Numbered from the stretch's first letter, positions 3,757 to 54,577 are shown. The stretch: 64,000 nt of DNA from an uncultured bacterium (GCA_902790465.1 CADASF010000005.1:70039-134038), one strand, 5' to 3'. Program-made: numbers and translations. Notes: a model not told the origin generated them from the letters alone.

Positions 3757-3900
3757 ATTAAGCCTTTTATAATGAGTTTTGAATGGCTGTCATAACTCTT
3801 AGCTATGACAGCTCATTTATTTTTATTATTTTCTTTGTTCTTGACATTCTTGTTATATTTTGATAATATTAAGAAGTTTTTTTTTGGGAGGATAAACTCA

Positions 3901-5169
3901 ATGACTCAAGATCCACTTTTTGAATTGACTCGTTCGCCTCAACTCAATGTTCTTATTAATAGAACAAAAGAATTTTATGAAAATACTATAACAGATGCCG
4001 AGTTTAAGGAAAGTATAAAAACTTTAAATTCATTTAGAAGAGAATTTAGATCATTTTTGAGAGAGCAGATAAAGTTTAATGCCATGACTTCTACAATGAA
4101 GCAACAGACAGAAATTATTGAACAGTCTCTTGAGAAAATAAGAGAAGGTCTTGAAGAGATGTATTCTTATTTCAATGATAGGAAGCAGGAACACATAGAT
4201 TCAGGACTTACAAAATGCAAATCTGCTTTTGAAAAATTACATGACTCTATTGAATCAATACAAAAAGAGGAAAAAGATACCCAAAAAACTTATTCTAAAG
4301 CTCCTCTTCAGAATGAATTGATGAGAATTGGGTATGCTTTAATTGATGGCAAAGTATCTCCTGATGCTTTTAAAATCAAACTCGATTCTTTGAAAAATTC
4401 ACTTAGAATGTATTATGGTTATTTTGATAAAATAGTTCCTCAGCCTTCAGAAACAGAATTTTTCAAAGAAAATGGTTCTATTATAAAAAGTTGTGTCAGA
4501 GATTATATAAAAGCCCTTGAAGAAGTCGGTATATTTTTTAAAGATTTGAATACCGAACATATAAAAGTTGGGCTACAAAAATCAAATGAAGCTGCTGAAA
4601 AATTGATGGATTTTCAAAATCGCTTAAATGAGCTAAAATCTGTCAAAAATTGTTTTAGATGTGGCACAAAAAATTTGGCTTCTGCTAAAATTTGTTCATC
4701 CTGTGGAGCAACTCTTCCTGTTATTGGTGAGGAAGAAGGCGGAGAAAACATAGATGTTAGAGTTGATGAAGATAATAACATAAATAATACAAATCATGTT
4801 CAGACAGAGCTTACAAAAAAAGTGTCTGATCTCGTTGCAGATTTTAAAAGTAGAAAAATATCTTCATCAGAAGCAAAGAAAAATTTAAATCAAATAATAG
4901 ATTCAGTTGTACAAACTAAAAAAGATAAAGATAAATTTAAACTTCCAAGTGATTTAAATGAAGATAATGAATATACATCAATATTTAACAAAATGGAAAA
5001 TTTGATGATTTCTGGATTAAATGAAATGGAAGATGGTTTGAGAAAAATTGAATCTTGTTTTGAAATTGAAGATGATTCTCAAATTGATTTTGCTCTTGAA
5101 CAATTCTTTTTTGGGGCAGATAATCTCTCAAAAGTTGTTGTCATGTCAGAGAGTTTAAAAGATAGTTAA
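3901..5169 (+). CDS. Hypothetical coiled-coil protein with internal zinc-ribbon (CxxC-x12-CxxC)
   Basis: CFRCGTKNLASAKICSSCG. The start was moved to ATG 3901 (RBS GGGAGG). The ORF-track N-terminus 3805-3900 reads through a TTGACA/-10 promoter. Confidence 0.5.
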   Translation: MTQDPLFELTRSPQLNVLINRTKEFYENTITDAEFKESIKTLNSFRREFRSFLREQIKFNAMTSTMKQQTEIIEQSLEKIREGLEEMYSYFNDRKQEHIDSGLTKCKSAFEKLHDSIESIQKEEKDTQKTYSKAPLQNELMRIGYALIDGKVSPDAFKIKLDSLKNSLRMYYGYFDKIVPQPSETEFFKENGSIIKSCVRDYIKALEEVGIFFKDLNTEHIKVGLQKSNEAAEKLMDFQNRLNELKSVKNCFRCGTKNLASAKICSSCGATLPVIGEEEGGENIDVRVDEDNNINNTNHVQTELTKKVSDLVADFKSRKISSSEAKKNLNQIIDSVVQTKKDKDKFKLPSDLNEDNEYTSIFNKMENLMISGLNEMEDGLRKIESCFEIEDDSQIDFALEQFFFGADNLSKVVVMSESLKDS

Positions 5170-5937
5170 ATGAAACCAGCTGAAATATTTGAGAAAATAT
5201 TCAAAGAAAAATTAATTTTTAATTCAGATAAATTACAATTTATATCCTCAGTTATGTCTTGTTTTAGAGATATTCCTTATGAAAATATTTCTAAAATAAA
5301 TCTATTAAAACCGACATTGAGAACTCCTGAAATTGTTATGCATGATTTTGAAAAGTTTGGGTTAGGGGGGACTTGTTTTTCCTTAACTTGGCTTTTAAAA
5401 ATCGTGCTAAATTATTTTGGGGAAGAATTTGCAGTATATTCTGCAGATAGAACTTATGGAGAAAATACACATTGTGCAGGAGTTTGGACTGATTCAAATG
5501 GTGCTAAATATCTCCTCGATGTTGGTTATCTTATTTTTACCCCTGTTTTAATTCCTCAAAATGAAAAAGAATCGGAATTTTCTTTTGGTTCTTTTGATTT
5601 TAAAATTGTCAATTCAAATTCAAGACTTCAAGTGTATTCCAAGACAAAAAATGCTGATTATAAATTTCGATATGTCATAAAAATGGATAAGATTTCAGAT
5701 TCAGATTTTATGGATATATGGATAAAAAGTTTTGAATTTGCTATGATGAATAATATCATTGTCAATAAATATTTAGGTTCTGATTTGGTATATATAAAAG
5801 ATTGTAGAATAAATTTTACAGGAAAAGCAAAAAAAGTTTCGCAAGATGAAGTAATCAATTTTATTTCAGAATTGGGAATTTCATCAACTGAAACACAAAA
5901 GGCTTTTGAAAAGATAAAAAAAGATGGAAAAAGTTAA
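5170..5937 (+). CDS. Arylamine N-acetyltransferase-like (Cys-His-Asp fold) protein
   Basis: GGTCFSLTWLL ... HCAGVWTDSNGAKYLLDVGY resembles the NAT GGYCFE...HLALLV..YLVDVGFG motifs. Confidence 0.5.
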   Translation: MKPAEIFEKIFKEKLIFNSDKLQFISSVMSCFRDIPYENISKINLLKPTLRTPEIVMHDFEKFGLGGTCFSLTWLLKIVLNYFGEEFAVYSADRTYGENTHCAGVWTDSNGAKYLLDVGYLIFTPVLIPQNEKESEFSFGSFDFKIVNSNSRLQVYSKTKNADYKFRYVIKMDKISDSDFMDIWIKSFEFAMMNNIIVNKYLGSDLVYIKDCRINFTGKAKKVSQDEVINFISELGISSTETQKAFEKIKKDGKS

Positions 5938-6436
5938 ATTATTTTACGCAATTTTATTTAATGATACAGATATATTGGAAAAGGCAAAAGAACTCCTCAT
6001 TAAAAAATGGGGAGCTATTGATTTTGTCAGTAAGCCATTTCCTTTTGATGGCACTTCCTATTATGAAGAAGAAATGGGAAAAGACCTTTCGAGAATTTTT
6101 GTCTCTTTTGATGAATTACAGGCTCCTTCTATTTTGCCTGAATCAAAAAATGTAGCTACTGAGATAGAAAATGTTTTTGCTATTGATGGAAAAAGAAAAA
6201 TAAATCTCGATCCAGGTTATCTCGATTATGCAAAACTTGTGCTTGTAAGTGGAAAATATGCCCCTCATAAACTTTGGATAGCAGATGGTATGTATGCAGA
6301 TTTTACACTTATCTATTCAAAGGGAAAATTTCAAAAGTTCAACTGGACTTTTCCTGATTTTGCTAAGGGTATATATGATTCGTCTCTTTTAAAAATAAGG
6401 GAATTGTATAAAAAGAAAGTCAATTCAAGTCGGTAA
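5924..6436 (+). CDS. Conserved hypothetical protein (DUF4416-like)
   Basis: Overlaps the upstream gene by 14 nt (operon). Identity assigned from the sequence pattern alone. Confidence 0.4.
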   Translation: MEKVKLFYAILFNDTDILEKAKELLIKKWGAIDFVSKPFPFDGTSYYEEEMGKDLSRIFVSFDELQAPSILPESKNVATEIENVFAIDGKRKINLDPGYLDYAKLVLVSGKYAPHKLWIADGMYADFTLIYSKGKFQKFNWTFPDFAKGIYDSSLLKIRELYKKKVNSSR

Positions 6437-6642: not shown

Positions 6643-8016
6643 ATGGCAAAGAAAAAAGTTGAAGAACTCACAATAGAAGAAAAATTACAAAATGCACTTA
6701 TACCAGAAAAAGACCAGCCTTATAAAATCCCTCAAAATTGGTGTTGGGTAAAAATTATGAATATAGGTGAAGTAGTTACAGGAAGCACACCAAATACAAA
6801 AGAAAAATCATATTTTGGAGGAAATGTTCCCTTTATAAAACCTGCAGACATTGATCAAGGAAGATATATTATATTTTCTAAAGATACATTAAGTGAAGAA
6901 GGAAAAAATGTATCTCGTCCTGTACCTAAAGGGTCAACTTGTATATGTTGTATAGGTACAATAGGAAAATGTGGATACTTAATGGTTGATGCTGTAACCA
7001 ATCAACAAATAAACACAATTATTCCTTATAAGATAGTAAATAGCTTATTTGTTTATTATTATTGTATTAGTGATTATTTTCAATGTACCATAATTAATAA
7101 CTCTTATGCAACAACTATATTTATAATAAAAAAATCTAAAATGTCAAGTTTACCCTTTCCTCTTCCTCCATTAGCAGAACAGGAGAGGATAGCAAATAAA
7201 CTTGATAATTATATTTCTAAACTCGATGAGGCAAAAGAAAAATTAGAAAAAGTTGTTGATACTTATGAATTTAGAAAATCTGTAATTTTACACAAAGCAT
7301 TTACTGGTCAACTGACTAAAAATTGGCGAAAAGAAAATAAATTTGAATTAGATGATGATATAAAAAAGAAAGCAATAACTAAAGATTCAATGCTACCTGA
7401 TGAATATCTATATGAAATTCCTGAAAATTGGCGTTGGGTTAGATTAGGTAATATAGGAGAAATAGTTACAGGAAGTACACCCAATACAAAAGATAAATCT
7501 TATTTTGGTGGAAATGTTCCTTTTATAAAACCAGCAGAACTTGATCAAGAAGAAAATATAATATCATCTACAGAAACATTGACAGAAAAAGGCAAGAATA
7601 TTTCTCGTCCTGTTAGAAAAGGTTCAACTTGCATTTGTTGTATTGGTACAATAGGAAAATGTGGATACTTAAGAGTAGAAGCAGTCACTAATCAGCAGAT
7701 TAATACAGTAATTCCTTATGATTTTCTTGATGATTTATTTGTATATTATTATTGTTGTAGTAAGTTTTTTAAGAAAGTTATAAGAACATCAAAATTACCT
7801 TTTCCTCTTCCACCCATTGAAGAACAGAAAGAGATTGTAAAAATTCTTGATTCTTTTTTGACAAAAGAAAAACAGGTTAAAGAAATAGCAGAAAAAGAGA
7901 TAGAGAGAGTTGAGGAGCTAAGGGAAAATCTTTTAACTCGTGCATTTGGTGGAATCCTTGGAACAAATAATCCAAATGAAGAAAATTCAATCGAATTATT
8001 AAAAACAGTGCTGTAA
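6643..8016 (+). CDS. hsdS: Type I restriction-modification specificity subunit HsdS (orphan)
   Basis: Two TRDs plus central and C-terminal conserved repeats (LPFPLPPLAEQERIA / LPFPLPPIEEQKEIV). No hsdM or hsdR in the window. Confidence 0.85.
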   Translation: MAKKKVEELTIEEKLQNALIPEKDQPYKIPQNWCWVKIMNIGEVVTGSTPNTKEKSYFGGNVPFIKPADIDQGRYIIFSKDTLSEEGKNVSRPVPKGSTCICCIGTIGKCGYLMVDAVTNQQINTIIPYKIVNSLFVYYYCISDYFQCTIINNSYATTIFIIKKSKMSSLPFPLPPLAEQERIANKLDNYISKLDEAKEKLEKVVDTYEFRKSVILHKAFTGQLTKNWRKENKFELDDDIKKKAITKDSMLPDEYLYEIPENWRWVRLGNIGEIVTGSTPNTKDKSYFGGNVPFIKPAELDQEENIISSTETLTEKGKNISRPVRKGSTCICCIGTIGKCGYLRVEAVTNQQINTVIPYDFLDDLFVYYYCCSKFFKKVIRTSKLPFPLPPIEEQKEIVKILDSFLTKEKQVKEIAEKEIERVEELRENLLTRAFGGILGTNNPNEENSIELLKTVL

Positions 8017-14013: not shown

Positions 14014-14859
14014 ATGATTAAGAAAAATATTGGATATTTGATAGCTTGTTTATTTTTTGTGGCTATCATTGTTTCAGCTTGTGGTGGTGATGGTAAAACT
14101 TTACCACCAGATAATTCATCTCTTTATTATTTGTTGGCTCAACAACAAAATGAACCAGTTCCTGAACCTATTCCGACTCCTTCTCCTACAGTATCTCCTG
14201 ATCCTGAGCCAGAACCAGAGCCTACGACTGAGCCTGAACCGACTCCAGTAAATCCATTTGCAGAAGCTCAGGAAGGTGATGAAGTTGAGTTTGGAAATTA
14301 TCCTCAGACTGCAGATGGTGAGGTACAGCCAATAAAATGGCGTGTCTTATCAAGAGATGATGATAAAAAGGAGTTATTGGCACTTTCCGTTAATGTTCTT
14401 GATTCAGTTCGTTTTGATGGTGATTCAACTGATTGGGGAAATAGTGAGATTCGTAGTTGGTTAAATGGTGATGATTTTTATAATAAAGTTTTAGATGATG
14501 GAACAGCTGTATTTACAGAGGCAGAGAAGAGTTTTATAAAGCCAGTAGTTCTTACAGATGTAGATATGACTGAGTCAGATAATGTGTTTTTATTGAGTGG
14601 TGATTGGAACCGTAATGGTGAGGCAAATGCTTATTTTGCAAATGATTCTGCAAGAATGTGTAGAGCAACAGAATATGCAGTAGCAAATGGTGTTTGGGTA
14701 GCAACTTCAGGATTTTATGCAGGTAATTGTTTATGGTGGTTGCGTACTGCTAATAATTCTAAGTATGTTTATTATGTTCTCAGTGCTGGGAACATCGGCT
14801 GCAACGATCCAAACTTTAAAAACCCTGGTGTTAGGCCCGCTTTGTGGATAAATCTTTAA
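14014..14859 (+). CDS. Lipoprotein with Pro/Glu/Thr-rich linker
   Basis: Signal peptide plus lipobox (VSAC). PEPEPT low-complexity spacer and a globular C-terminal domain. Confidence 0.5.
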   Translation: MIKKNIGYLIACLFFVAIIVSACGGDGKTLPPDNSSLYYLLAQQQNEPVPEPIPTPSPTVSPDPEPEPEPTTEPEPTPVNPFAEAQEGDEVEFGNYPQTADGEVQPIKWRVLSRDDDKKELLALSVNVLDSVRFDGDSTDWGNSEIRSWLNGDDFYNKVLDDGTAVFTEAEKSFIKPVVLTDVDMTESDNVFLLSGDWNRNGEANAYFANDSARMCRATEYAVANGVWVATSGFYAGNCLWWLRTANNSKYVYYVLSAGNIGCNDPNFKNPGVRPALWINL

Positions 14860-15292
14860 TCTTTTAATCTTTAATTTTATCTTAAATCGTATCCATAAAT
14901 CTTGCGCCTTTAGGCGCTAATCTAAAGAAATACGAAGTTATGTTGAAATAATTATTTGGGAATGAATTTAAAAAGAGTTTAAAAATGTTTTTGTCCTGGC
15001 CTAAGGCTGGGTCGCTTTTTTTTTATAATTGACATTTTTTGTACTTGGTTTTATATAAAATAAAGAAAGGATTCAGATGTTGCGAAAGCAGATAACAAAC
15101 TATTTAATTTTTTCACAGACCCTTTGGTTAGAGTTGTGCTAAATAAAAACTCTGTTCTTCAGGTGGAATATTTAACATTTGATTAAATAATTTGGTTTTA
15201 TCATTTGCTTTCAAGACTTCTGAAGGAAAAAGGATTATTTATGGATAAAAAATATTTTCAAATAATTTTTATTGAGGAATTTTGTTAAATAG

Positions 15293-43964: not shown

Positions 43965-44678
43965 ATGGCTAAAACAGCTAAGAGAATGGCTGCCATTCTC
44001 AAAACATATGATAAATTGAACTATTTCTCAGTAGCAGAAGCTGTAGAACAAGTTTTGAAAAATGCTTCAGCAAAATTCAACGAAACAGTTGAAATCCATG
44101 TAAAACTTGGAATTGATCCTACAAAGAGCGATCAAACAGTAAGAGGAACTGTAGTTCTTCCAAACGGAACTGGTAAAACTCCAAAGATTATCGCTTTCGT
44201 AAAAGCAGATAAAGAAAAAGAAGCACTTGATGCTGGTGCAGAAGCAGCAGGAGCAGATGAGCTCATTGCAAAAGTCAAAGCAGGATATTCAGATTTTGAA
44301 ATCTGCGTTGCAACACCTGATATGATGGGACCTATTGGTAAAGGTCTTGGAAGACTTCTCGCTGCAAAGATGCCTAACCCAAAAGCTGGTACAGTTACAA
44401 AAGATATTGGAAAGACAATTAAAGAACTTAGACTTGGTAAAATCCAATACAGAGCTGACAAGCAAGGTATCGTTCACTCTTCAGTTGGAAAAAGAGATTT
44501 CGGCAAAGACAAAATTTTGCAGAATATCGCAACACTTCTCGATGCAGTTATCAGAGCAAAACCAGCAGCTGCAAAGGGTACATATATAAAGAGTGTTGTT
44601 CTCACTTCAACAATGGGTCCAAGCGTAAGAGTTGACCCACTTAAAGTTCCAGCATTCTTACAGGGCAGAGAAAACTAA
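43965..44678 (+). CDS. rplA: 50S ribosomal protein L1
   Basis: Whole-length L1 similarity (237 aa), including the VVLPNGTGKT motif. Confidence 0.95.
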   Translation: MAKTAKRMAAILKTYDKLNYFSVAEAVEQVLKNASAKFNETVEIHVKLGIDPTKSDQTVRGTVVLPNGTGKTPKIIAFVKADKEKEALDAGAEAAGADELIAKVKAGYSDFEICVATPDMMGPIGKGLGRLLAAKMPNPKAGTVTKDIGKTIKELRLGKIQYRADKQGIVHSSVGKRDFGKDKILQNIATLLDAVIRAKPAAAKGTYIKSVVLTSTMGPSVRVDPLKVPAFLQGREN

Positions 44679-44727
44679 TTTAGAATATAATGAGCTGTAT
44701 ATTACAGCTTTATAGAAATATTTAGAG

Positions 44728-44775
44728 ATTTTGTCAATATTTTTTGTAAAGTATTGACAAAATCTCATTTATGAT
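44728..44775. promoter_or_regulatory. Perfect 15-bp inverted repeat (gagattttgtcaata / tattgacaaaatctc) overlapping TTGACA and TATATAAT elements upstream of tRNA-Ala. Likely the rplA terminator plus the tRNA promoter.
   Basis: Read directly from the sequence. Confidence 0.45.
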
Positions 44776-44795
44776 ATATAATTTTTAACAGTCTT

Positions 44796-44868
<73 letters not shown>

Positions 44869-45018
44869 TAAAATTTTACAGCTCGTGTGTTTTAAAACAT
44901 ACGAGCTTTTTTATATTTTATTTGTAATTTATACAATAATGTTCTTCTAAACTATTACAAAACAGGAAATATATATTTTTTTTTGAAATAAACAAAAAGA
45001 AATTTTTAGGATAATTAT

Positions 45019-45738
45019 ATGATAAATAAAGTTAAAACAGCTGTTTTATTGTCAGCAGGTTTGGGAACACGAATGAGACCTATTACAAATTCTATCCCCA
45101 AGCCACTTGTAAAAGTAAATAATAAATCACTTATAGAAACAGTTATTGATTCTCTTATATTCTATGGTGTTGAAAATATCTATATTGTTACAGGATATTT
45201 GGCAGATAAATTTTCATTTCTTGAAAAAAAATACAATGGCAAATGTGAGATACATTTTGTTCATAACAAGGATTATGAGACAAAAAACAATATATCTTCA
45301 CTTTATGTAGTTAAAGATTTAATAAAAGATAATTGTTTTATATGTGAAGCCGACCTTTTTATACCTGATGAAAAATTATTTTCAACTTTAAATATAAATC
45401 GTTCTTGTTATTTTGGAAATTTTGTAGAAGGTCATTCTGATGATTGGGCTTTTGTCTGCGATTCTGATAAAAAAATAACTAAGATCGCAATAGGTGGAGA
45501 TAATCTTTTTAATATGGTTGGAATTTCTGTTTGGTCAAAAGAAGATTTTCTACAAATAGGAAATAGGGTAGGGGAGATGATGAATGAACCAAATGGAGAT
45601 AGTAGATTTTGGGATGAAGCTGTTGACGATATATTAAATAAAATATCTGTACATGTTCTTCCTATTGAAAATGGTCAAATAATAGAAATTGACACTGTAG
45701 AAGAATTGGAAAGGGTCAGAAAAAATTATGAAAAATAA
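45019..45738 (+). CDS. LicC/PntC-like sugar-phosphate (or phosphonate) nucleotidyltransferase
   Basis: N-terminal LLSAGLGTRMRPIT..PKPLV nucleotidyltransferase signature. Confidence 0.7.
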   Translation: MINKVKTAVLLSAGLGTRMRPITNSIPKPLVKVNNKSLIETVIDSLIFYGVENIYIVTGYLADKFSFLEKKYNGKCEIHFVHNKDYETKNNISSLYVVKDLIKDNCFICEADLFIPDEKLFSTLNINRSCYFGNFVEGHSDDWAFVCDSDKKITKIAIGGDNLFNMVGISVWSKEDFLQIGNRVGEMMNEPNGDSRFWDEAVDDILNKISVHVLPIENGQIIEIDTVEELERVRKNYEK

Positions 45739-47035
45739 AAAAACTGTTTATATGAGTTTTGCGACAGATATTATAAACAGTGGACATTTAAATATAATTG
45801 AAAAAGCCTCTGAACTTGGTGATATAATAGCTGGAATTCAGACAGATGAAGTCATAGCACAGAATAATCGTTTTCCATTAGTTGATATTGAAGAGAGAAT
45901 AAGGATATTTTCTTCTATCAAAAATATATCAAAAGTAGTTGTTCAAGATACTCTTTCATATAAAAAAATATTGAATGAGTTAAAACCTGATTATGTTGTA
46001 CATGGTGATGATTGGGTTAATAATGAGCTTTCATTTATAAGAGAAGAAGTAATAAAAATATTGTCTGAATATGGCGGAAAACTTGTAGAATTTCCATATA
46101 CATATAACAACACATTGACACAGTTAAATCACAAACTAAAAATTCAATCAGGACTTCCTGAAGTTAGAAGACCTAAATTGAAAAGGTTATTGAAATCAAA
46201 AGATATTGTTTCAATAATAGAAGCACACAGTGGATTAAGTGGGTTAATTGCAGAAAACACGGTTGTAAGGGTTGATGAAAAATTGAAATCATTTGACGGC
46301 ATGTGGGTTTCAAGTCTTTGTGATTCAACCATGAAGGGAAAGCCTGACATCGAACTTGTCGATTTTACAAGTCGTATTTCAACAATAGATGAAATAATGG
46401 ATGTTACAACAAAGCCAATAATTCTCGATGGAGATACTGGCGGACTTATTGAGCATTTTGTGTATAATATAAAAACGATTGAAAGAATAGGCGTTTCTGC
46501 CGTAATTATTGAAGATAAAAAGGGATTAAAGAAAAATTCACTGTTTGGAACAGATGTTTCACAACAACAGGATTCAATAGAAAATTTTAGTGCTAAAATA
46601 AGTGCAGGAAAAAGGGTTTTGATAAGTGATGATTTTATGCTTATTGCTCGAATAGAAAGTCTTATTTTAGAAATTGGTCTTGAAGATGCTTTAAAAAGAG
46701 CTAATGCCTATGTAAATGCAGGGGCTGATGGCATAATGATCCATTCGAGAAAAAAAGAACCTGATCAAGTATTTGAATTTGCAAAAGAATTTAAAAAAGA
46801 ATTTCCAGACATTCCTCTTGCAGTTGTACCTACTACATATTGCCAAGTAACTGAAAAAGAATTGGCAGACCATGGAATAAATATTGTTATATATGCAAAT
46901 CATCTGATAAGAAGTGCATATCCTGCAATGTTGAATTCTGCTAAATCTATACTTTCGAATGGTTCTGCTGTAGAAGCCTCTAAAAAATATTGTGTATCTA
47001 TAAAAGATATTCTTGGAATACTTCCAAATCGTTAA
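45728..47035 (+). CDS. Cytidylyltransferase-domain (HxGH) :: phosphoenolpyruvate mutase fusion
   Basis: N-terminal FATDIINSGHLNII (TagD-like HxGH). C-terminal EAHSGLSG ... IIEDKKGLKKNSLFG (PEP mutase EDKxxxKxNSL signature). Confidence 0.75.
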   Translation: MKNKKTVYMSFATDIINSGHLNIIEKASELGDIIAGIQTDEVIAQNNRFPLVDIEERIRIFSSIKNISKVVVQDTLSYKKILNELKPDYVVHGDDWVNNELSFIREEVIKILSEYGGKLVEFPYTYNNTLTQLNHKLKIQSGLPEVRRPKLKRLLKSKDIVSIIEAHSGLSGLIAENTVVRVDEKLKSFDGMWVSSLCDSTMKGKPDIELVDFTSRISTIDEIMDVTTKPIILDGDTGGLIEHFVYNIKTIERIGVSAVIIEDKKGLKKNSLFGTDVSQQQDSIENFSAKISAGKRVLISDDFMLIARIESLILEIGLEDALKRANAYVNAGADGIMIHSRKKEPDQVFEFAKEFKKEFPDIPLAVVPTTYCQVTEKELADHGINIVIYANHLIRSAYPAMLNSAKSILSNGSAVEASKKYCVSIKDILGILPNR

Positions 47036-47047
47036 AGGTTATTAAAA

Positions 47048-48265
47048 ATGATTTTATACATAGACCCAGGTACAGGGAGCATGCTTTTTTCAATATTTAT
47101 TGGATTGGCAGCAGCTCTCTACTATTTTTTTAAAATGGCAATAATAAAATTTAAATTTCTCTTTACTGGAAAAAATACAGCTATTGAAGATTTAAAAGAG
47201 CCAATTGTAATATATTGTGAAGCAAATCATTATTGGTATGTTTTTAAGCCAATTTTGGATGAACTTGAAAAAAGAAAACAAACGGCAATATATTATACAT
47301 CTGTAGAAAAAGATAGATTTTTTGAACAAAATTATTCTTTCATAAAAGGAAAATACATAGGTGAAGGAAATAAGGCGTTTGCTTTTTTAAATTTTATACA
47401 TGCCGATGTATGCCTTATGACAACACCTGGGCTTGATGTTTATCAACTGAGGCGTTCTAAACTTGTAAAACACTATTCACATATTTTACATTCTGTTGAT
47501 GATGCTACAAGCTATGAAATATTTGGAATAGATTATTATGATTCTGTACTCCTTTCAGGAGATTATCAAAAGGACGGAATAAAAGAACTTGAATCAAAAA
47601 GAGGAGACACTCCAAAAGAACTTATTACAGTAGGAAGCACTTATCTTGATTGTTTTAATGAAAAATTAAAATCAATGAAAATAGATAAAAGCGAAAAGAC
47701 TACAGTTCTTGTGGCACCTTCATGGGGAAAAAATAGTATTCTTGTGAAATTCGGAAAAAAACTGCTCGATGTATTGGCTTCTTCTGATTACAATATAATA
47801 ATCCGTCCACATCCACAATCTTTAAAATCAGAACCAGATGTTATAAATGATTTAAAAGACCATTATAAAGAAAGATTTTCTTGGGATTTTGCCCCTGAAA
47901 ATTTGGATTCTCTCTCAAAAGCAGATATCATGATAAGTGATTTTTCAAGTGTTATATTTGACTATTGTTTCTTATTTGATCGTCCTTTCTTCTATTGCAT
48001 GCAAGATTTCAACATGGAAATTTATGATGCAGGTGATTTAGATGAAGAGCCTTGGAAATTTAGGATACTTGAAAAAATTGGAATTGAATTGAAAGAAGAA
48101 GAATTTCCAAAATTTACTGAAATTGTGGAAAAAGCACTAAAAGATGACAATTTGAGTAAAGCGAGAAAATTGGCAAAATCAGTCGCTTGGCAAAATATAG
48201 GGGAAAGTGGAAAAAGAACAGTTGATTTTTTGTTGAGTAAAGTAGAGCGGAAAGAAGAAAAATAG
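47048..48265 (+). CDS. CDP-glycerol glycerophosphotransferase-like (TagB/TagF family) enzyme
   Basis: C-terminal APSWGK ... IRPHP ... ADIMISDFSS motifs typical of the TagF family. N-terminal TM. Confidence 0.65.
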   Translation: MILYIDPGTGSMLFSIFIGLAAALYYFFKMAIIKFKFLFTGKNTAIEDLKEPIVIYCEANHYWYVFKPILDELEKRKQTAIYYTSVEKDRFFEQNYSFIKGKYIGEGNKAFAFLNFIHADVCLMTTPGLDVYQLRRSKLVKHYSHILHSVDDATSYEIFGIDYYDSVLLSGDYQKDGIKELESKRGDTPKELITVGSTYLDCFNEKLKSMKIDKSEKTTVLVAPSWGKNSILVKFGKKLLDVLASSDYNIIIRPHPQSLKSEPDVINDLKDHYKERFSWDFAPENLDSLSKADIMISDFSSVIFDYCFLFDRPFFYCMQDFNMEIYDAGDLDEEPWKFRILEKIGIELKEEEFPKFTEIVEKALKDDNLSKARKLAKSVAWQNIGESGKRTVDFLLSKVERKEEK

Positions 48266-48270
48266 ATAAA

Positions 48271-50892
48271 ATGGATTTTTTGTATCAAATAGTAATTTAT
48301 CCAATTCAACTTTTTATTGAAATTATATATATAACTCTTTATCATGCTCTTGAACATGTAGCAGGACGAAGTGGATATGCAATAATAGGAGTAAGTCTTG
48401 CTGTTTCATTTTTGACACTTCCAATGTATGTAAAGGCTGAAAAACTTCAAGATATTCAAAGAGATATTTTGAAGAAAATGGAAAAAAAGTTGGAGTCAAT
48501 AAAACGCAATTTTAAAGGTGATAAGAAATATATGTTAATTTCAGCATATTACAAAAAAAATTCTTATCATCCTTTGATGGTTTTGCGTAGTTCTCTGAGT
48601 CTTTTTATTATGATTCCATTTTTCATGGCAGCATATATATTTCTTTCAGAGCCTCGTCTTTTATCTGGTGAATCATTTTTCTTTTTAACAGACTTATCTA
48701 AACAAGATCAATTAATAAATTTATTTGGCTTAAGACTAAATTTACTGCCAATTTTGATGACTGTTATAAATATTTTTTCTGGTTATATTTATTCTGAAAA
48801 ACTTTCAAAATCAGAAAGACTTCAGATTTATATAACATCTATTATTTTCTTATTCATTTTATATACTTCCCCATCAGGGCTTGTTTTTTATTGGACTTGT
48901 AATAATATATTTTCATTTTTTAAAAATATTTGGATTAAGTATAATTTTAAGATAGGTTTTAATATTAGCTTTATTTTAAATAGATTTGACAAACTTGAAA
49001 ATTTTAATACAGATAGTTGTTTTATTCTTTCTATGTTTTTATTTTGGCTTTTAATAGGACTTGTTATTCCAACAGATTTTATGTCATCTTCTTCACTTGA
49101 AATTTGTAAAATGTGCAGGGATATGTCTATTTGGAAGGTTTTATCATATCCTGTCTTGCAGTCTTTTGGAATATTTGTATTTTGGGGCATTTTAATTTTT
49201 TACCTTGCAGATAAAAAAATAAAGAATTTATTTACATTATTTTCTATTTCCACATTTATTTATAGTTTGATACAAATGTACCTATATCCTTATGGTTTAG
49301 CTGATTTTACTTTTAGATTTAGCCCATATATGTCAAAAACAACACCTGTAGTTTCTTGTTTATTGATAATAATTTACATATTTACATTATTTATTTTATA
49401 TAAAATATTTGTAAATAATAAAGAAAAAATTATATCATCTATTATGTCAATATTAATAATTGCCTGTCTAATGACTATTTTTGTAAATGTAAATAAGATA
49501 AATAATGGATATGTAAGATATAATGAAATTGTGTCAATTGACTTAAAAGATCAAATTAGTAACAATAAAATATTTAAATTCACAAAAACAGGAAAAAATG
49601 TTCTTATAATTTTTCTTGATAGAGCTATAAGTTCATTTTTTCCTCTTATAATGGAAAAAAATGAAAATTTAAAGAAATCTTATGAAGGTTTTATTTATTA
49701 TCCCAATACAGCCACTTTTTATTGTCATACCATTTTAGGTGCTCCACCAATATTTGGTGGTTATGAGTATACACCAATAGAGATGAATAAACGAAAGGGT
49801 CTTATGAAAGATAAACATAATGAAGCTCTTTTAGTATTACCTTCTATTTTTAAAAATAAAGGTGCTTATGTATGTGTTACAGATGCACCTTTAAAAAATT
49901 ATGAATGGATTTCAGATAATAAACTTTATAAAGAGAAAGGAATAAACGCTTATAATTTATTGGGATGTTATACAGAAAAGTTTTTAAAAGATAAATTAGA
50001 TATAACATTTTCGGATTCTTCACCTTCGGTTTTATTAAAACATGATTTTTTATTTTTTTCTTTTATGAAAATTTCAGACAGTGTAATAAGGCATATTTTA
50101 TATAATGATAAAAAATATTTAAATCCAATATATCTAAAAAAAAATAATATAATTTGTAATCCTGATAGGTTAATGATGCTGGATTCTTATTCAACTCTTT
50201 TAGAACTTAACAATTTATCTGATTTTACTTGTAAAGAAAATTTAACATTAAATATTATGATTAATAACTTGACACATGACATTGATTTTTTCCAATTACC
50301 AAAATATACTATTGAGAAAAAAGTGAACAATATTGGAATAAATTTTATAGGTAATAGAAAGTCTTTTCGTTTTTATCATGGAAATACTTCTTCATTGTAT
50401 AGACTTTCAGAATGGTTTGAAGAACTTAAAGCCAATGGAGTTTATGATAATACACGAATAATAATAGTTTCGGATCATGGATTTTCACTTGTAAATAATT
50501 ATTGTAAAAATGAAAGGGCAACATTTTTTAATGCATTATTAGTTGTAAAAGATTTTAATTCTAAAGGATATTATAAAATAGATGATACATTAATGACCAA
50601 TGCTGATGTTCCTTATATTGCAACTAAAGATGTTATAAATAATCCAATTAACCCATTTACAGGCAAATCTATTAATGAGTTTGATAAATCAAAAGGTATT
50701 AATGTATTGAATCAACATTTATATAATCCACAAGATTTTGATGGCGATAAATGTATTTTTCAAGATTATTATTTTCATATAAAAAATAGTGTGTTAAACA
50801 GCGATGACTGGAAAGTGGAATTGTTTTCATTAAATACGAATAGTAAAGAAAGTATATCAAATAATAGTTTATCCAATTCAACTTTTTATTGA
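48271..50892 (+). CDS. Membrane protein: N-terminal YidC/Oxa1-like insertase domain fused to multi-TM segment and C-terminal LtaS/sulfatase-like (alkaline-phosphatase superfamily) domain, paralog 1
   Basis: GYAIIGVSLAVSFLTLPMYVKAEK...KYMLISAYYKKNSYHPLMVLRSSLSLFIMIPFFMAAY resembles the YidC core. C-terminal VLIIFLDRA...IIVSDHG metal-site motifs. Confidence 0.6.
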   Translation: MDFLYQIVIYPIQLFIEIIYITLYHALEHVAGRSGYAIIGVSLAVSFLTLPMYVKAEKLQDIQRDILKKMEKKLESIKRNFKGDKKYMLISAYYKKNSYHPLMVLRSSLSLFIMIPFFMAAYIFLSEPRLLSGESFFFLTDLSKQDQLINLFGLRLNLLPILMTVINIFSGYIYSEKLSKSERLQIYITSIIFLFILYTSPSGLVFYWTCNNIFSFFKNIWIKYNFKIGFNISFILNRFDKLENFNTDSCFILSMFLFWLLIGLVIPTDFMSSSSLEICKMCRDMSIWKVLSYPVLQSFGIFVFWGILIFYLADKKIKNLFTLFSISTFIYSLIQMYLYPYGLADFTFRFSPYMSKTTPVVSCLLIIIYIFTLFILYKIFVNNKEKIISSIMSILIIACLMTIFVNVNKINNGYVRYNEIVSIDLKDQISNNKIFKFTKTGKNVLIIFLDRAISSFFPLIMEKNENLKKSYEGFIYYPNTATFYCHTILGAPPIFGGYEYTPIEMNKRKGLMKDKHNEALLVLPSIFKNKGAYVCVTDAPLKNYEWISDNKLYKEKGINAYNLLGCYTEKFLKDKLDITFSDSSPSVLLKHDFLFFSFMKISDSVIRHILYNDKKYLNPIYLKKNNIICNPDRLMMLDSYSTLLELNNLSDFTCKENLTLNIMINNLTHDIDFFQLPKYTIEKKVNNIGINFIGNRKSFRFYHGNTSSLYRLSEWFEELKANGVYDNTRIIIVSDHGFSLVNNYCKNERATFFNALLVVKDFNSKGYYKIDDTLMTNADVPYIATKDVINNPINPFTGKSINEFDKSKGINVLNQHLYNPQDFDGDKCIFQDYYFHIKNSVLNSDDWKVELFSLNTNSKESISNNSLSNSTFY

Positions 50893-51061
50893 AAGTATAA
50901 AGTATATATTTGATTCTTTACCGAATTTGACAAATCAAAGGGAATAAGAGTCTTAGATTATTTTAGAGACAAACCAAAATATTTTAAAGAAAGTTAATGT
51001 TCTAAAACATCAAATAATATTTTAGATATTTTAAATTGGAATAAAGAAAATAATTAATAAT

Positions 51062-53638
51062 ATGGATTTTTTATATCAAATAGTAATTTACCCAATTCAG
51101 CTTTTTATTGAAATTATATATATAACTCTTTATCATTCACTTGAACATGTTGCAGGAAGAAGTGGATATGCAATAATAGGAGTAAGTATTGCTGTTTCGT
51201 TTTTGACCCTTCCAATGTATGTAAAGGCTGAAAAACTTCAAGATATACAAAGAGATATTTTGAAGAAAATGGAAAAAAAGTTGGAGTCAATAAAACGCAA
51301 TTTTAAAGGTGATAAAAAGTATATGCTGATTTCAGCATATTACAGAAAAAATTCTTATCACCCTTTGATGGTTTTGCGAAGTTCTCTGAGCCTTTTTATA
51401 ATGATTCCATTTTTTATGGCTGCATATATATTTCTTTCAGAACCTCGCCTTTTAGCAGGTGAATCATTTTTCTTTTTGACAGACCTTTCAAAACAAGATC
51501 AATTAATAAATTTATTCGGTCTCAAATTTAATTTACTTCCAATTTTGATGACAGTTATAAATATTTGGGCAAGTTATGTCTATACAGAAAAACTTTCAAA
51601 ATCTGAAAAATTCCAATTATATATAACAGCCATTGTTTTTCTATTTCTTTTATATACTTCTCCATCAGGTCTTGTTTTTTATTGGACATGTAATAACATT
51701 TTTTCACTTTTTAAAAATATTTGGATGAAATACAATTTTAAAATAGATTTTAATGTTGATTTTATTTCAAAAATATTTGACAAACTTGAAAATTTAAAAT
51801 TTAATGCAGATATTTGTTTTATCTTTTCAATGGTTTTGCTTTGGCTTATGTCTGGAATTTTGCTTCCATTTAATATGGCTTCTGCTTCACCTATTGAATT
51901 TTGTGGAATATGTGGTGATGTGTCTGTTTGGCAAGTATTATTATATCCTGCATTACAGTCTTTTGGGATATTTGTATTTTGGGGAATTTTAATTTTTTAT
52001 CTTGCTGATAGAAAATTTAAAAATTTACTTACATTAATTTCTGTTTCTACAATTTGTTTAAGCATTATAAATATATATAGACATTCGTCATCTCTAATAT
52101 CACAATCTTTTAGACTTAGACCTGCTGAATTGGTAATACCTATATTTGTTTCTTATTTATTGATAATTGTCTTTTATATAATTTTTTGTTTTGTTTTTTA
52201 TAAAATATTTGAAAAAGGAAAAGGAAAAGTTATAACATCTTTATTTTCAATTTTATTAATTGCTTGTTTTATACATATTTTTTTAAGTAGCTATAAAATA
52301 AATAGTGGTTTTAATAGATATAAAAAAATTGTTTCAGACGAGAAAAAGACTTTTGTTGATGATAAGATTTTTAAATTTACGAAAACAGGAAAAAATGTTC
52401 TTGTAATATTTTTGGATAAAGCTATGAACTCATTTTTCCCTCTTATATTGGAAAAAGATAAAGAATTGAAAAAATCTTATGAAGGTTTTGTTTATTATCC
52501 AAATACAGTTACTTTTTATTGCCATACTATTTTAGGAGCTCCTCCTATTTTTGGAGGTTATGAATACACACCACAAGAGATGAATAAACGAAAAGGGATT
52601 AAAATGAAGGATAAACATAATGAATCCCTTTTGGTATTGCCTTCTATTTTCAAAAATAAAGGTGCTTATGTTTCTTTTACAGATGCACCACTTAAAAATT
52701 ATGAGTGGATTTCAGATAATAAACTTTTTACTGAAAAAGGAATAAATGCTCGTAATTTAATAGGAATGTTTACTCAAGATTTTCTTGAAAATAAAATGGG
52801 CATGAATGTATCTGAATTTAGTCCAGCTGGATTATTAAAACATGATTTTTTATTATATTCTTTTATGCAAATTTCCCCAGATTCAATAAATAGAAGATTT
52901 TATAACAGTGGAAAATATTTAAATTCGATATATATTTTGATAAAACAAATGATTCCAGGTGAGAATATCGCATTATTTGATTCTTATTCTGAATTGTTAA
53001 ATCTAAAAAATATTTCTGATTTTGATTTAAAAGATAATTTATCTCTTAATATAATAACTAACGATATTACACATGAACCAGCTTTACTTCAGTTGCCAAA
53101 ATATACCATAGAAAAAAATATAGATAATGTTGGAGAAAATTTTGTTGGAAGTCAAGATACTTTTGAGCATTATCATGTCAATGCTTCGGCATTGTATAGA
53201 CTTTCAGAATTTTTTGATGAACTTAAAAAGAATGGCGTATATGATAACACAAAAATAATAGTTATATCAGATCATGGTGCACCTGTTAAAAATTATGCTT
53301 CTGAAAGTGAAACATTAAATTATTTTAATCCTCTATTATTAGTAAAAGATTTTAATTCAAAAGGCAATTATAAAATTGATAATTCAATGATGACCACTGC
53401 AGATGTTCCTTATATTGCTACTAAAGACATCATAGAAAAGCCAACTAATCCATTTACAGGTAAAGATATTACTGAATTTGATAAATCAAATGGTATAGAT
53501 GTTATTAATGGAAATAAACATAATCCTCAAGATTTTAGAGGAGATGAATGTATATTTGAAAAATATCACTATCATATAAAAAGTAGAGTTTTAAATGGTG
53601 AAGATTGGAAAGCCATTGAATTAAAGGAGGAAAAATGA
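51062..53638 (+). CDS. YidC-like :: LtaS/sulfatase-like fusion protein, paralog 2 (about 65% identical to paralog 1; N-terminal about 190 aa more than 90% identical)
   Basis: Same motifs as paralog 1. VLVIFLDKA ... IVISDHG. Confidence 0.6.
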   Translation: MDFLYQIVIYPIQLFIEIIYITLYHSLEHVAGRSGYAIIGVSIAVSFLTLPMYVKAEKLQDIQRDILKKMEKKLESIKRNFKGDKKYMLISAYYRKNSYHPLMVLRSSLSLFIMIPFFMAAYIFLSEPRLLAGESFFFLTDLSKQDQLINLFGLKFNLLPILMTVINIWASYVYTEKLSKSEKFQLYITAIVFLFLLYTSPSGLVFYWTCNNIFSLFKNIWMKYNFKIDFNVDFISKIFDKLENLKFNADICFIFSMVLLWLMSGILLPFNMASASPIEFCGICGDVSVWQVLLYPALQSFGIFVFWGILIFYLADRKFKNLLTLISVSTICLSIINIYRHSSSLISQSFRLRPAELVIPIFVSYLLIIVFYIIFCFVFYKIFEKGKGKVITSLFSILLIACFIHIFLSSYKINSGFNRYKKIVSDEKKTFVDDKIFKFTKTGKNVLVIFLDKAMNSFFPLILEKDKELKKSYEGFVYYPNTVTFYCHTILGAPPIFGGYEYTPQEMNKRKGIKMKDKHNESLLVLPSIFKNKGAYVSFTDAPLKNYEWISDNKLFTEKGINARNLIGMFTQDFLENKMGMNVSEFSPAGLLKHDFLLYSFMQISPDSINRRFYNSGKYLNSIYILIKQMIPGENIALFDSYSELLNLKNISDFDLKDNLSLNIITNDITHEPALLQLPKYTIEKNIDNVGENFVGSQDTFEHYHVNASALYRLSEFFDELKKNGVYDNTKIIVISDHGAPVKNYASESETLNYFNPLLLVKDFNSKGNYKIDNSMMTTADVPYIATKDIIEKPTNPFTGKDITEFDKSNGIDVINGNKHNPQDFRGDECIFEKYHYHIKSRVLNGEDWKAIELKEEK

Positions 53639-54117
53639 AGAAGAATTTTGTTTTTATTTTTTGTTTTTTGTTGATTATGCTTTCTCCTGTGTATGCAAAA
53701 GAATCACTTGTTGAAAAAGCACATAAAGAAGCACCAGCAAATGCTATTTTTGCAGTTATGGATAATGTTGGGGAAACTGATGTCATGGAGGCAAATGCTC
53801 TTATAACAAGATCAAATGCTTATTCAAACGATATGATGTTCAACTATGGCGTTCATATTTTAATAATTCCATTAAAAGAAGATGTTACAATAAAAATAGA
53901 CTATGTAAAATATGATTTTAAAACTGAAAAAATGAATGTAATTAAAACTTTTCATGAGTCAAAAGATAGATGTGTAGATTTCTTCACAGTGAGAGCTGAA
54001 ACAATACCAATTTATAGGGTAAGAGGAATATATAAAGGACAAGAGGCTATTCATTATATAACTGTTGATGGAAAAGACGGCGATGATGTAATGAAATTTA
54101 TTGAACCTAAAAATTGA
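53635..54117 (+). CDS. Secreted hypothetical protein (signal peptide)
   Basis: N-terminal hydrophobic h-region plus VYA|KE cleavage-like site. Overlaps the upstream stop by 4 nt. Confidence 0.5.
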   Translation: MKKNFVFIFCFLLIMLSPVYAKESLVEKAHKEAPANAIFAVMDNVGETDVMEANALITRSNAYSNDMMFNYGVHILIIPLKEDVTIKIDYVKYDFKTEKMNVIKTFHESKDRCVDFFTVRAETIPIYRVRGIYKGQEAIHYITVDGKDGDDVMKFIEPKN

Positions 54118-54166
54118 GAAAAATAATGAAGAATAAAAAAAATGTCAGAAATTTCTGACATTTTTT

Positions 54167-54577
54167 TTATTCTTTATCTTCTACATTTTGTTTTGTATTT
54201 GCTATAATCTGTTTGTATTTTTTTATTTCTTCCAAAAGATTATTTATTTCTTCACTCTTCTTGGACATCTCTTTTCGCATTTCTGCCTTGATTTTTTCCA
54301 TTTTCTCAATCATATTTACTATTATCTCGACACCTGCTAAATTAACTCCAAGATTTGTGAAGCTACATATTTGTTCCAATCTGCCTATATCACTATGTGA
54401 ATAGAGCCTCATGTTTCCATCTGTTCTATGTGGATTTAAGAGACCAAGACGCTCATAATGTCTGATTGTCTGCGGATGAACATTAAGCATTTTTGAAACT
54501 ACACTTATTACAAAATAAGGTTCTTGTTTATCATTACTCATTTGTCTTCTCCTTCTCCGCTTTCTTAACTCAGACAA
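54167..54577 (-). CDS. hspR: MerR-family heat-shock repressor HspR
   Basis: HTH YFVISVVSKMLNVHPQTIRHYERLGLL. Last gene of the dnaK operon. Confidence 0.8.
   Translation of the reverse strand: MSELRKRRRRRQMSNDKQEPYFVISVVSKMLNVHPQTIRHYERLGLLNPHRTDGNMRLYSHSDIGRLEQICSFTNLGVNLAGVEIIVNMIEKMEKIKAEMRKEMSKKSEEINNLLEEIKKYKQIIANTKQNVEDKE

Follow-up and report, generated by a model that had tools for sequence, protein, structure and literature searches.

Cytoplasmic loading, flipping across the membrane and transfer on the outside are combined in the GtrB/GtrA/GtrC and CsbB/GtcA/YfhO systems, which use GT2, GtrA and GT-C proteins; MprF, a fused flippase-synthase, is a precedent for joining a flippase to an enzyme, and all of these systems move sugars or lysyl-phosphatidylglycerol. 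The glycerophosphate transferases LtaS, LtaP and GacH carry a polytopic membrane module (five transmembrane (TM) helices in LtaS) before an extracytoplasmic domain of the alkaline phosphatase (AP) fold. Similarly, PbgA (YejM) and the phosphoethanolamine transferases EptA/MCR-1, which belong to lipid A modification, have five TM helices and a periplasmic AP domain with a threonine nucleophile. YidC/Oxa1 insertases (E. coli 3wvf, B. halodurans YidC2 3wo6) are built on a 5-TM core that includes a cytoplasmic hairpin. Here we describe two tandem genes that join a YidC/Oxa1-like domain, a second membrane module and an extracytoplasmic AP-superfamily domain in one polypeptide. They lie in a 64,000-nucleotide stretch of DNA from an uncultured bacterium (GCA_902790465.1, CADASF010000005.1:70039-134038; the window), directly after a gene for a TagF-like enzyme with an N-terminal DPGTGS anchor. 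A first-pass annotation of the window had proposed two plus-strand open reading frames (ORFs) of about 860 codons for the fusions; both are present (873 and 858 amino acids; Table 1), as are all of the peptide strings it quoted. Of the architecture, the existence of the family and the operon arrangement we are highly confident. The parts are of known kinds. In the literature we found, no characterised YidC-LtaS-like fusion was described, as the first-pass annotation had supposed, and neither the fusion, nor the TagF-like partner with its DPGTGS motif, nor the systematic loss of the groove arginine in a YidC-like subfamily was the subject of any paper.

An AlphaFold2 model of the fusion, made from 53 homologues (predicted local distance difference test (pLDDT) 88, predicted template modelling score 0.84), resolves the YidC-like domain into an amphipathic helix (residues 2-26), a TM helix at 33-55 and further TM helices at 101-125, 158-177, 180-197 and 202-223; by the secondary structure of the model alone, a cytoplasmic helical hairpin (56-96; helices 56-80 and 83-96) lies between the first two core TM helices. 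The second membrane module has five TM helices, at 247-273, 287-312, 315-338, 359-381 and 385 to about 407, so that the 'about 8' helices previously counted between the YidC core and the catalytic domain are reduced to five and the protein has ten in total (5+5). The model, together with canonical YidC topology, places the N-terminus outside; because of this N-out topology the catalytic domain is assigned to the outside of the cytoplasm as well, and the distribution of Lys and Arg (17 in 75 inside-loop residues versus 7 in 101 outside) agrees with the positive-inside rule.

The N-terminus of the fusion is a true YidC/Oxa1-fold domain and not just a generic membrane anchor, since profile searches match the whole core. 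Pfam PF02096 (60KD_IMP) aligns with residues 35-223 over profile positions 2-162 of 163, with 78.4 and 76.1 bits for the two paralogs against a cutoff of 35; solved YidC structures are matched over the full core by phmmer (about E 1e-5), and a profile of the fusion family matches B. halodurans YidC2 (3wo7) at E 3.5e-10 over 8-225. Many canonical YidC motifs are retained (P51, 'PFF', 'DLS', 'LPILM' and 'PSGL..Y'). By comparison with canonical YidC, the fusion has no TM1, signal peptide or P1 domain; it carries an enzyme in place of the C-terminal ribosome-binding tail; it has extra invariant Asn residues in TM4 and TM6; its genes are multi-copy and lie in accessory operons; and its groove arginine (R366/R72) is replaced in every member. 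Alignment to solved YidC puts S46 of paralog 1 at the position of E. coli R366, and among 150 family members this position is Asn in 67, Ser in 46, Thr in 34, Cys in two and Gln in one, with Arg or Lys in none. The polar TM residues S42, T164, N167, N211, N212 and S215 are essentially invariant across the family, and the basic character of position 106 is conserved. Measured in 20-residue blocks, conservation is highest in the YidC-like domain (0.6-0.82), followed by the catalytic core (0.63-0.74), and lowest in the 5-TM module (0.3-0.58). This pattern indicates a YidC-like domain that is functional but diverged from the canonical form.

The simplest reading of the database names, and of a Pfam match above threshold, would be that these proteins are housekeeping YidC insertases with an additional C-terminal domain. 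We consider this extremely improbable. The genes occur as two tandem copies in an accessory surface-decoration operon and in up to three copies per locus among related loci, and the family as a whole is found in loci of the polysaccharide or teichoic acid type; no member has the groove arginine; and the scores for NCBIfam TIGR03592 (83.1 and 81.1 bits) fall narrowly under its cutoff of 84.3, with those for the YidC equivalog models (21-55 bits) far under theirs (282-891). No curated NCBIfam model spans the whole fusion protein.

At the sequence level, the C-terminal domain yields only short, local matches to sulfatase or Phosphodiest profiles around its DHG motif; Pfam Sulfatase (PF00884) reaches 17.8 and 23.9 bits, under its cutoff of 25, over about residues 714-746. 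Its modelled fold is more informative. Foldseek searches of the PDB returned, each at probability 1.00, MCR-1 (9nww_B, 1.3e-6), LtaS (2w5q, 1.4e-6), PbgA (6xlp, 3.3e-6) and EptA (5fgn, 9.1e-6), with further LtaS/GacH-type matches (2w8d and 4uoo) at E of about 1e-6. D450 (49618-49620), T487 (49729-49731), H669 (50275-50277) and D735-H736 (50473-50478) are invariant in 155 of 155 family members and correspond to D452, T489, H671, D737 and H738 of paralog 2, so that the predicted metal and nucleophile set is intact in both paralogs. Their order is that of the metal, nucleophile and phosphate-binding residues of LtaS (E255, T300, H416 (queried), D475 and H476) and GacH (E488, T530, H650, D711 and H712). 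The LtaS/LtaP/GacH group thus has in common with the fusion its general layout, a Thr nucleophile, acidic/Asp-His metal ligands and a phosphate-binding His; it differs in that the fusion has no sequence-level membership of the group, Asp for Glu at the first metal ligand and a stretch of about 65 inserted residues that separates the Thr from the His, as well as a fused YidC-like domain and a TagF-like partner, neither of which is recorded for LtaS or GacH. EptA/MCR-1 and PbgA are the best full-length structural matches, although identity is about 11%, the fusion has its additional N-terminal 5-TM domain and its operon context is activation of cytidine diphosphate (CDP)- or cytidine monophosphate (CMP)-linked alcohols. 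The LtaS/EptA-like catalytic domain of the first-pass annotation is therefore upheld by fold and invariant residues as a member of the AP superfamily, in which the model supports its placement as a distant family of its own.

The Foldseek matches next in line, at similar E, are phosphonate monoester hydrolases and sulfatases (2w8s, 2.1e-6; 2vqr, 4.3e-6), and these, with the restriction of sequence-level matches to sulfatase or Phosphodiest profiles near the DHG, would suit an outside domain that trims or recycles head groups placed by the TagF-like enzyme, as a phosphodiesterase, phosphonate monoester hydrolase or sulfatase-like enzyme. Such a hydrolytic or remodelling role is improbable in our view: the nucleophile is an invariant Thr, where sulfatases have the Cys/Ser-x-P-x-R formylglycine motif, the 5-TM and outside-domain layout is that of the head-group transferases LtaS, EptA and PbgA, and the co-operonic biosynthesis genes suggest installation over removal.

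Far from being rare, the fusion occurs many times in sequence databases. A full-length search gave 2710 proteins at E <= 1e-3, those listed being 850-950 amino acids long and named merely 'YidC/Oxa1 family membrane protein insertase', including proteins of Treponema primitia, Leadbettera azotonutricia, Brucepastera and T. lecithinolyticum. A scan of species-representative genomes found at least 569 stretches encoding the fusion, in Treponema, Sphaerochaeta, Lachnospiraceae, Oscillospiraceae, Ruminococcaceae, Elusimicrobiaceae, Erysipelotrichaceae and a member of the Coriobacteriia; Acholeplasmataceae carry the family as well. When residues 240-873, the part outside the YidC-like domain, were searched against 1.84 billion cluster representatives, 2010 matches were obtained, 746 of them at E <= 1e-30. 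Among the best 150 of the 2010, most were 850-930 amino acids long with the match starting near residue 290-300, which indicates that the N-terminal domain is present; full-length fusions account for about three quarters of these 150, and fragments for many of the others. The one member lacking the YidC domain that was examined in its context is a 655-amino-acid ORF (P0236; locus L082, 5676-7968) consisting of the 5-TM and AP modules and located directly after an intact fusion of 914 amino acids. Since the 106-amino-acid ORF preceding P0236 matches fusion residues 3-50, this member appears to be a secondary derivative that has lost most of its YidC domain; it could be a pseudogene or a copy relying on the YidC-like domain of its neighbour. 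With most relatives full-length and the standalone form a derivative with a YidC remnant, the idea of an independent 5-TM and AP family that sometimes gains a YidC domain was rejected.

As a separate observation, one metagenomic contig that otherwise matches the T. denticola locus has its fusion split into ORFs of 653 and 267 amino acids (L086, 10212-12954), where the same fusion is intact at 916 amino acids in CP076572.1 (L085, 10212-12962); a frameshift, phase variation or an assembly error are possible causes.

Genes neighbouring the fusion in the window were compared by tblastn with 80 related loci. A TagF-like gene was adjacent to the fusion in 55 of the 80, and in 55 of the 69 with adequate flanks (truncated contigs make up 11 of the 25 that lack it). 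The distance to the fusion never exceeded 675 bp; as a rule it was below 90 bp or the two genes overlapped, often by their stop and start codons. In 54 of the 55 pairs both genes shared a strand. Unsupervised clustering of 1031 neighbouring ORFs likewise singled out the TagF-like partner. In the reverse direction, the partner proteins of an Acholeplasmataceae metagenome-assembled genome (MAG), T. denticola, Sphaerochaeta pleomorpha and a Bacilli MAG all adjoin a PF02096 fusion gene (4/4). Homologues of the LicC-like transferase were found in 34 of the 80 loci and of the cytidylyltransferase-phosphoenolpyruvate (PEP) mutase in 12; the PEP mutase was for this reason rejected as the defining partner. 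On this genomic evidence the conserved partner of the fusion is a TagF-like phosphotransferase, the link with PEP mutase being local, and in the window the fusion genes and the TagF-like gene are predicted to be co-transcribed.

The partner matches Pfam PF04464 (Glyphos_transf) with 43.2 bits against a cutoff of 22.1, over residues 212-322 only, and no NCBIfam model. Its AlphaFold2 model (pLDDT 87.5) is closest in Foldseek to TagF with CDP-glycerol (3l7k_D, E 1.2e-11, template modelling score 0.58) and next to the TagF-like capsule polymerase Cps3 of A. pleuropneumoniae (8qoy). The GT-B fold and the Glyphos_transf match are therefore common to the partner and to TagF and TagF-like capsule polymerases, whereas the Pfam match is partial, the nucleotide-linked substrates probably depend on the locus, and the partner has an invariant N-terminal TM anchor of its own. 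H142, H145, H148 and H255 (in RPHPQ) are invariant in an alignment of 38 homologues (52-85% identity) and are candidates for counterparts of the catalytic histidine pair of TagF (H444 and H584). The most conserved block in the same alignment is the extreme N-terminus, where Y4-I5-D6-P7-G8-T9-G10-S11-x-L13-F14-S15 is invariant and is followed by a TM helix (helix 7-40 in the model) and by K34/K36. Among the 1031 neighbouring ORFs, the YIDPGTGS-type motif is limited to the partner family.

In an Acholeplasmataceae MAG (L083, 14207-15224) a standalone YidC-like protein of 220 amino acids, with Ser at the R366 position and the motifs of the subfamily, is encoded by a gene (14207-14869) whose stop overlaps the start of a 317-amino-acid TagF-like gene beginning MMVFYLDPGTGS. 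The pair lies a few kb downstream of a complete cluster of fusion, partner, choline kinase/cytidylyltransferase and BCCT genes. The start of the same arrangement is seen at 10917-11468 of L084, so that one lineage and two assemblies are represented; a scan of 88 loci for further standalone YidC-like genes gave only the L083-type case as definite. This small protein was unsuitable as a housekeeping control as it belongs to the divergent arginine-less subfamily. Because the standalone pair has no AP module, the YidC-like domain is linked to the DPGTGS-anchored enzyme independently of that module. This bears on a further explanation, in which the fused domain is a chaperone in cis for its own 5-TM module and outside domain only. 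YidC is described as an insertase and chaperone for polytopic proteins (PMC7618853), and an N-terminal YidC domain would be made first. On the other hand, LtaS, EptA, GacH and PbgA have the 5-TM and AP layout with no need of a fused YidC, conservation of the domain exceeds that of its supposed client module, and the YidC-less derivative described above persists as an open reading frame beside an intact fusion. We regard a purely cis-acting role as very improbable; the standalone pair, the multi-copy accessory context and the missing arginine weaken both it and the housekeeping explanation.

The paralogs are 69% identical overall (588/853) and, in line with the figure of more than 90% given earlier for this segment, 92% identical over residues 1-190 (175/190). 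The divergence also claimed for the catalytic domains holds for the insert at residues 561-700, but not for the catalytic core (431-560), which is still 85% identical; most of the divergence lies in the 5-TM region and the insert. Between the paralogs, nonsynonymous (dN) and synonymous (dS) divergence are 0.044 and 0.476 for the YidC-like domain (dN/dS about 0.09), 0.342 and 0.568 for the 5-TM module and 0.431 and 0.857 for the insert. Codons 1-100 (48271-48570 versus 51062-51361) have a dS of 0.28, codons 101-230 a dS of 0.66 and the other parts 0.57-0.86. The lower value at the 5' end may point to limited gene conversion within the first 300 nucleotides, in addition to purifying selection. 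Gene conversion as the sole source of the N-terminal identity was mostly rejected, because dS at 0.28 and 0.66 is not zero and the YidC-like domain is the most conserved part across phyla.

The genes that would supply the head group vary among loci. In the window, the position of the fusions downstream of a PEP mutase/TagF-like cluster, as noted in the first-pass annotation, was borne out by profiles for the LicC-like, cytidylyltransferase-PEP mutase and TagF-like genes. The mutase scores 395.5 bits with TIGR02320 (cutoff 319.55) and 184 bits with Pfam PEP_mutase, and its EDKKGLKKNS fits the Ppm motif EDKxxxxxNS defined in PMC6697681, according to which cytidylyltransferase-PEP mutase fusions make up 23.6% of Ppm proteins. 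It has the fusion of PF01467 with PEP_mutase, and this motif, in common with Fom1-type enzymes. Because the operon holds both this gene and the LicC-like transferase, the head group is probably a phosphonate. Elsewhere the fusion-partner pair is accompanied by a set of Ppm, Ppd and a PntC-aminotransferase fusion (L012); by Ppm, Ppd and an Fe-alcohol dehydrogenase, a hydroxyethylphosphonate-type set, in Sphaerochaeta; by a BCCT transporter and a choline/ethanolamine kinase-cytidylyltransferase in Acholeplasmataceae; and by a TagD-like cytidylyltransferase and LicD in the Bacilli MAG; in T. denticola (CP076572.1, within 1113750-1132964) its two genes are adjacent and lie in a large glycosyltransferase cluster. 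As the activation genes vary in this way among envelope glycoconjugate loci, the pair looks like a general module for CDP/CMP-activated phospho- or phosphono-alcohols. Acholeplasmataceae are a wall-less lineage, and the presence of the pair in a MAG of this family suggests that at least some of the acceptors are membrane-anchored.

Our best overall explanation, to which we would give about an even chance, is a docked machine that makes, flips and transfers a head group for the decoration of envelope glycoconjugates. The N-terminal anchor of the TagF-like enzyme would dock at or within the groove of the YidC-like domain, and the enzyme would load a carrier lipid in the inner leaflet with an activated phospho(no)-alcohol; the uncharged polar groove would act as a scramblase that passes the polar head group across the bilayer; and Thr487 of the outside domain would, in the manner of LtaS, GacH and EptA, take the head group as a covalent intermediate before its transfer to an envelope glycolipid or glycopolymer. 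The paralogs would share donor and partner and differ in acceptor specificity, the former fitting their nearly identical YidC domains and the latter their divergent 5-TM modules and 561-700 inserts. The order of steps would be that of the Gtr-type systems, by analogy and not homology, with a TagF-like enzyme, a YidC-like domain and an AP-fold domain as the components and a phospho(no)-alcohol as the cargo, by contrast with these systems and MprF. The components of this explanation are not equally probable. Extracytoplasmic transfer of a phospho(no)-alcohol to the envelope, the role suggested in the first-pass annotation, in conjunction with the TagF-like enzyme fits the conserved gene context and is moderately likely. 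A YidC-like domain that serves as dock and lipid head-group conduit is a tentative proposal, for which a parallel exists in the in vitro scrambling of glycerophospholipids by purified E. coli YidC (bioRxiv 10.1101/2023.09.01.555937). Slightly more tentative again is the specific form in which the YidC/Oxa1 fold has been recruited as a substrate-dedicated conduit and dock, with the DPGTGS anchor in the arginine-less groove, the cargo delivered to the outer leaflet and the carrier lipid regenerated.

The main rival to passage through the groove, next to which the hydrolase, cis-chaperone and housekeeping explanations are lesser ones, is that the YidC-like domain is a dock or insertase only, for the short acidic N-tail and TM anchor of the TagF-like enzyme, with no lipid passing. 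It would insert this anchor, retain it permanently in the groove, or do both, and thereby unite the cytoplasmic and outside enzymes in a single complex; the TagF-like and outside enzymes would then act on one glycoconjugate at different stages, or the outside domain would use bulk phospholipid. The invariance and family specificity of the anchor fit this well, as do its 10-residue tail with D6, TM helix and K34/K36, which resemble YidC-only substrates (Pf3 coat and F0c are such substrates); so do the coupling of a standalone YidC-like gene to a DPGTGS-anchored TagF-like gene where there is no AP module, and the near-identity of the YidC domains in two paralogs with a single partner gene for both. 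Against this, a housekeeping YidC could insert such an anchor; the groove arginine that attracts acidic tails in canonical YidC has been lost, which is unexpected for an insertase of an Asp-containing tail; and fusion to an outside transferase in nearly all members, rather than to any membrane anchor, is left unexplained. We therefore rate docking without lipid passage as rather unlikely.

Several points weigh against the make-flip-transfer explanation as a whole. The TagF-family enzymes described so far modify lipid-linked glycans or polymers and are not known to produce a simple lipid donor; known LtaS, EptA and GacH enzymes draw on bulk phospholipids, with no requirement for a flippase of their own or for a partner of the TagF type. 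The equivalence with LtaS residues is one of order, invariance and alignment at the DHG, not of residue-level superposition. Family members without a YidC domain do occur, if rarely, and about 14 of the 69 adequately flanked loci have no adjacent TagF-like gene; GtrII, MBOAT and AMP-binding (Dlt-like) genes are neighbours at loci of this kind. Finally, tblastn with the Ppd and PntC-2-aminoethylphosphonate (AEP) transaminase of L012 found neither Ppd nor an AEP transaminase in the 64-kb window, and the window holds no alcohol dehydrogenase either, whereas in the related loci L012 and L087 such enzymes lie next to Ppm; either the coupling enzyme is located elsewhere in the genome or the phosphonate pathway is unusual or incomplete.

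Thousands of entries named 'membrane protein insertase YidC' are probably mislabelled envelope-modifying enzymes, and the label hides a system of surface decoration that is widespread in bacteria of the gut, rumen and mouth, among them Treponema denticola, Sphaerochaeta, many Clostridia and Acholeplasmataceae. For the transfer step in phosphonate tailoring, only LicD-like phosphotransferases or glycosyltransferases have been named (PMC6697681); the fusion family is a candidate route by which phosphonates (AEP and hydroxyethylphosphonate), phosphocholine and glycerophosphate, nucleotide-activated in the cytoplasm, could reach glycoconjugates on the outside. The physiological role of lipid scrambling by insertases would become testable in a non-essential, mutable protein with a chemical read-out, for which the invariant DPGTGS anchor and the arginine-less groove are defined mutagenesis targets. 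Should the groove prove to be a conduit, this would be the first natural case of insertase-type lipid scrambling as a selected physiological function, and it would define a new and widely distributed pathway by which gut and oral bacteria are decorated with phosphocholine, phosphonates and glycerophosphate.

The features of the locus are collected in Table 1. Six co-directional genes, from 45019 to 54117, are enclosed by two terminator-like hairpins. The downstream one (AAGAATAAAAAAAATGTCAGAAATTTCTGACATTTTTTTTATTCTT) has a near-perfect stem with T-runs on both strands and separates the surface-decoration operon from convergent hspR-dnaJ-hsp20-dnaK genes, making it a likely bidirectional terminator. 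The last gene of the operon, orf160, shares 4 bp with the end of paralog 2, its start overlapping the stop of that gene; neither Pfam nor NCBIfam gave a match, tblastn found no homologue in any of the 80 related loci (0/80), and orf160 looks like a lineage-specific secreted add-on of the operon.

Table 1. Position of the fusion genes, their domains and the other features of the operon in the window.
Feature	Position	Strand	Evidence or remark
Terminator-like hairpin 3' of tRNA-Ala (44795-44869)	44880..44907	+	Upstream boundary of the operon
LicC-like nucleotidyltransferase, 239 aa, presumed head-group activation	45019..45738	+	Pfam NTP_transferase 49.5 bits, NTP_transf_3 40.3 bits
Fom1-like fusion: cytidylyltransferase domain (residues 14-99) and PEP mutase (residues 151-433)	45728..47035	+	TIGR02320, Pfam
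TagF-like predicted CDP/CMP-alcohol phosphotransferase, 405 aa	47048..48265	+	Pfam, AlphaFold2 model, Foldseek, adjacency to fusion
N-terminal anchor of the TagF-like partner	47048..47167	+	Invariant columns, helix 7-40 of the AlphaFold2 model
Fusion paralog 1, 873 aa: YidC-like domain, 5 TM helices and AP-superfamily domain	48271..50892	+	
YidC/Oxa1-like domain of paralog 1, residues 1-226	48271..48948	+	Pfam, PDB sequence matches, AlphaFold2 model
Second membrane module of paralog 1, residues 245-426	49003..49548	+	AlphaFold2 model, conservation
Extracytoplasmic AP-superfamily domain of paralog 1, residues 436-855	49576..50835	+	Foldseek, invariant residues
Fusion paralog 2, 858 aa, architecture as paralog 1	51062..53638	+	
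orf160, 160 aa, signal-peptide-like N-terminus (MKKNFVFIFCFLLIMLSPVYAKE)	53635..54117	+	
Bidirectional terminator-like hairpin, 20-bp stem	54129..54174		Downstream boundary of the operon

Elsewhere the window has the character of a housekeeping chromosome region, with genes for EF-G, LepA, MetRS, EF-Tu, ribosomal proteins and DnaK. Immediately upstream, a secE-nusG-rplK-rplA run is followed by tRNA-Ala and the operon, with no more ribosomal-protein genes in the stretch examined (43965-45018). Further upstream, an ORF at 6643-8016 resembles the S subunit of a type I restriction-modification system (NF007278, 96.8 bits against a cutoff of 662, E 1.2e-27) and also matches the S-subunit model of the MADS5 defence system, both matches being well under the curated cutoffs; those of the adjacent ORFs at 3805-6436 that were examined had no NCBIfam match. 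G+C content in the paralog region (48001-54000) is 0.25, compared with 0.31-0.39 in the flanks, which could reflect an acquired island or the codon usage of membrane proteins. The closest named relatives of LepA are from Candidatus Xenobiia/Eremiobacterota (Vulcanimicrobiota) MAGs, at 73-74% identity, which places the host, an uncultured gut bacterium, near this group and not among the spirochetes; the nearest homologues of the fusion beyond the host's own lineage are spirochaetal.

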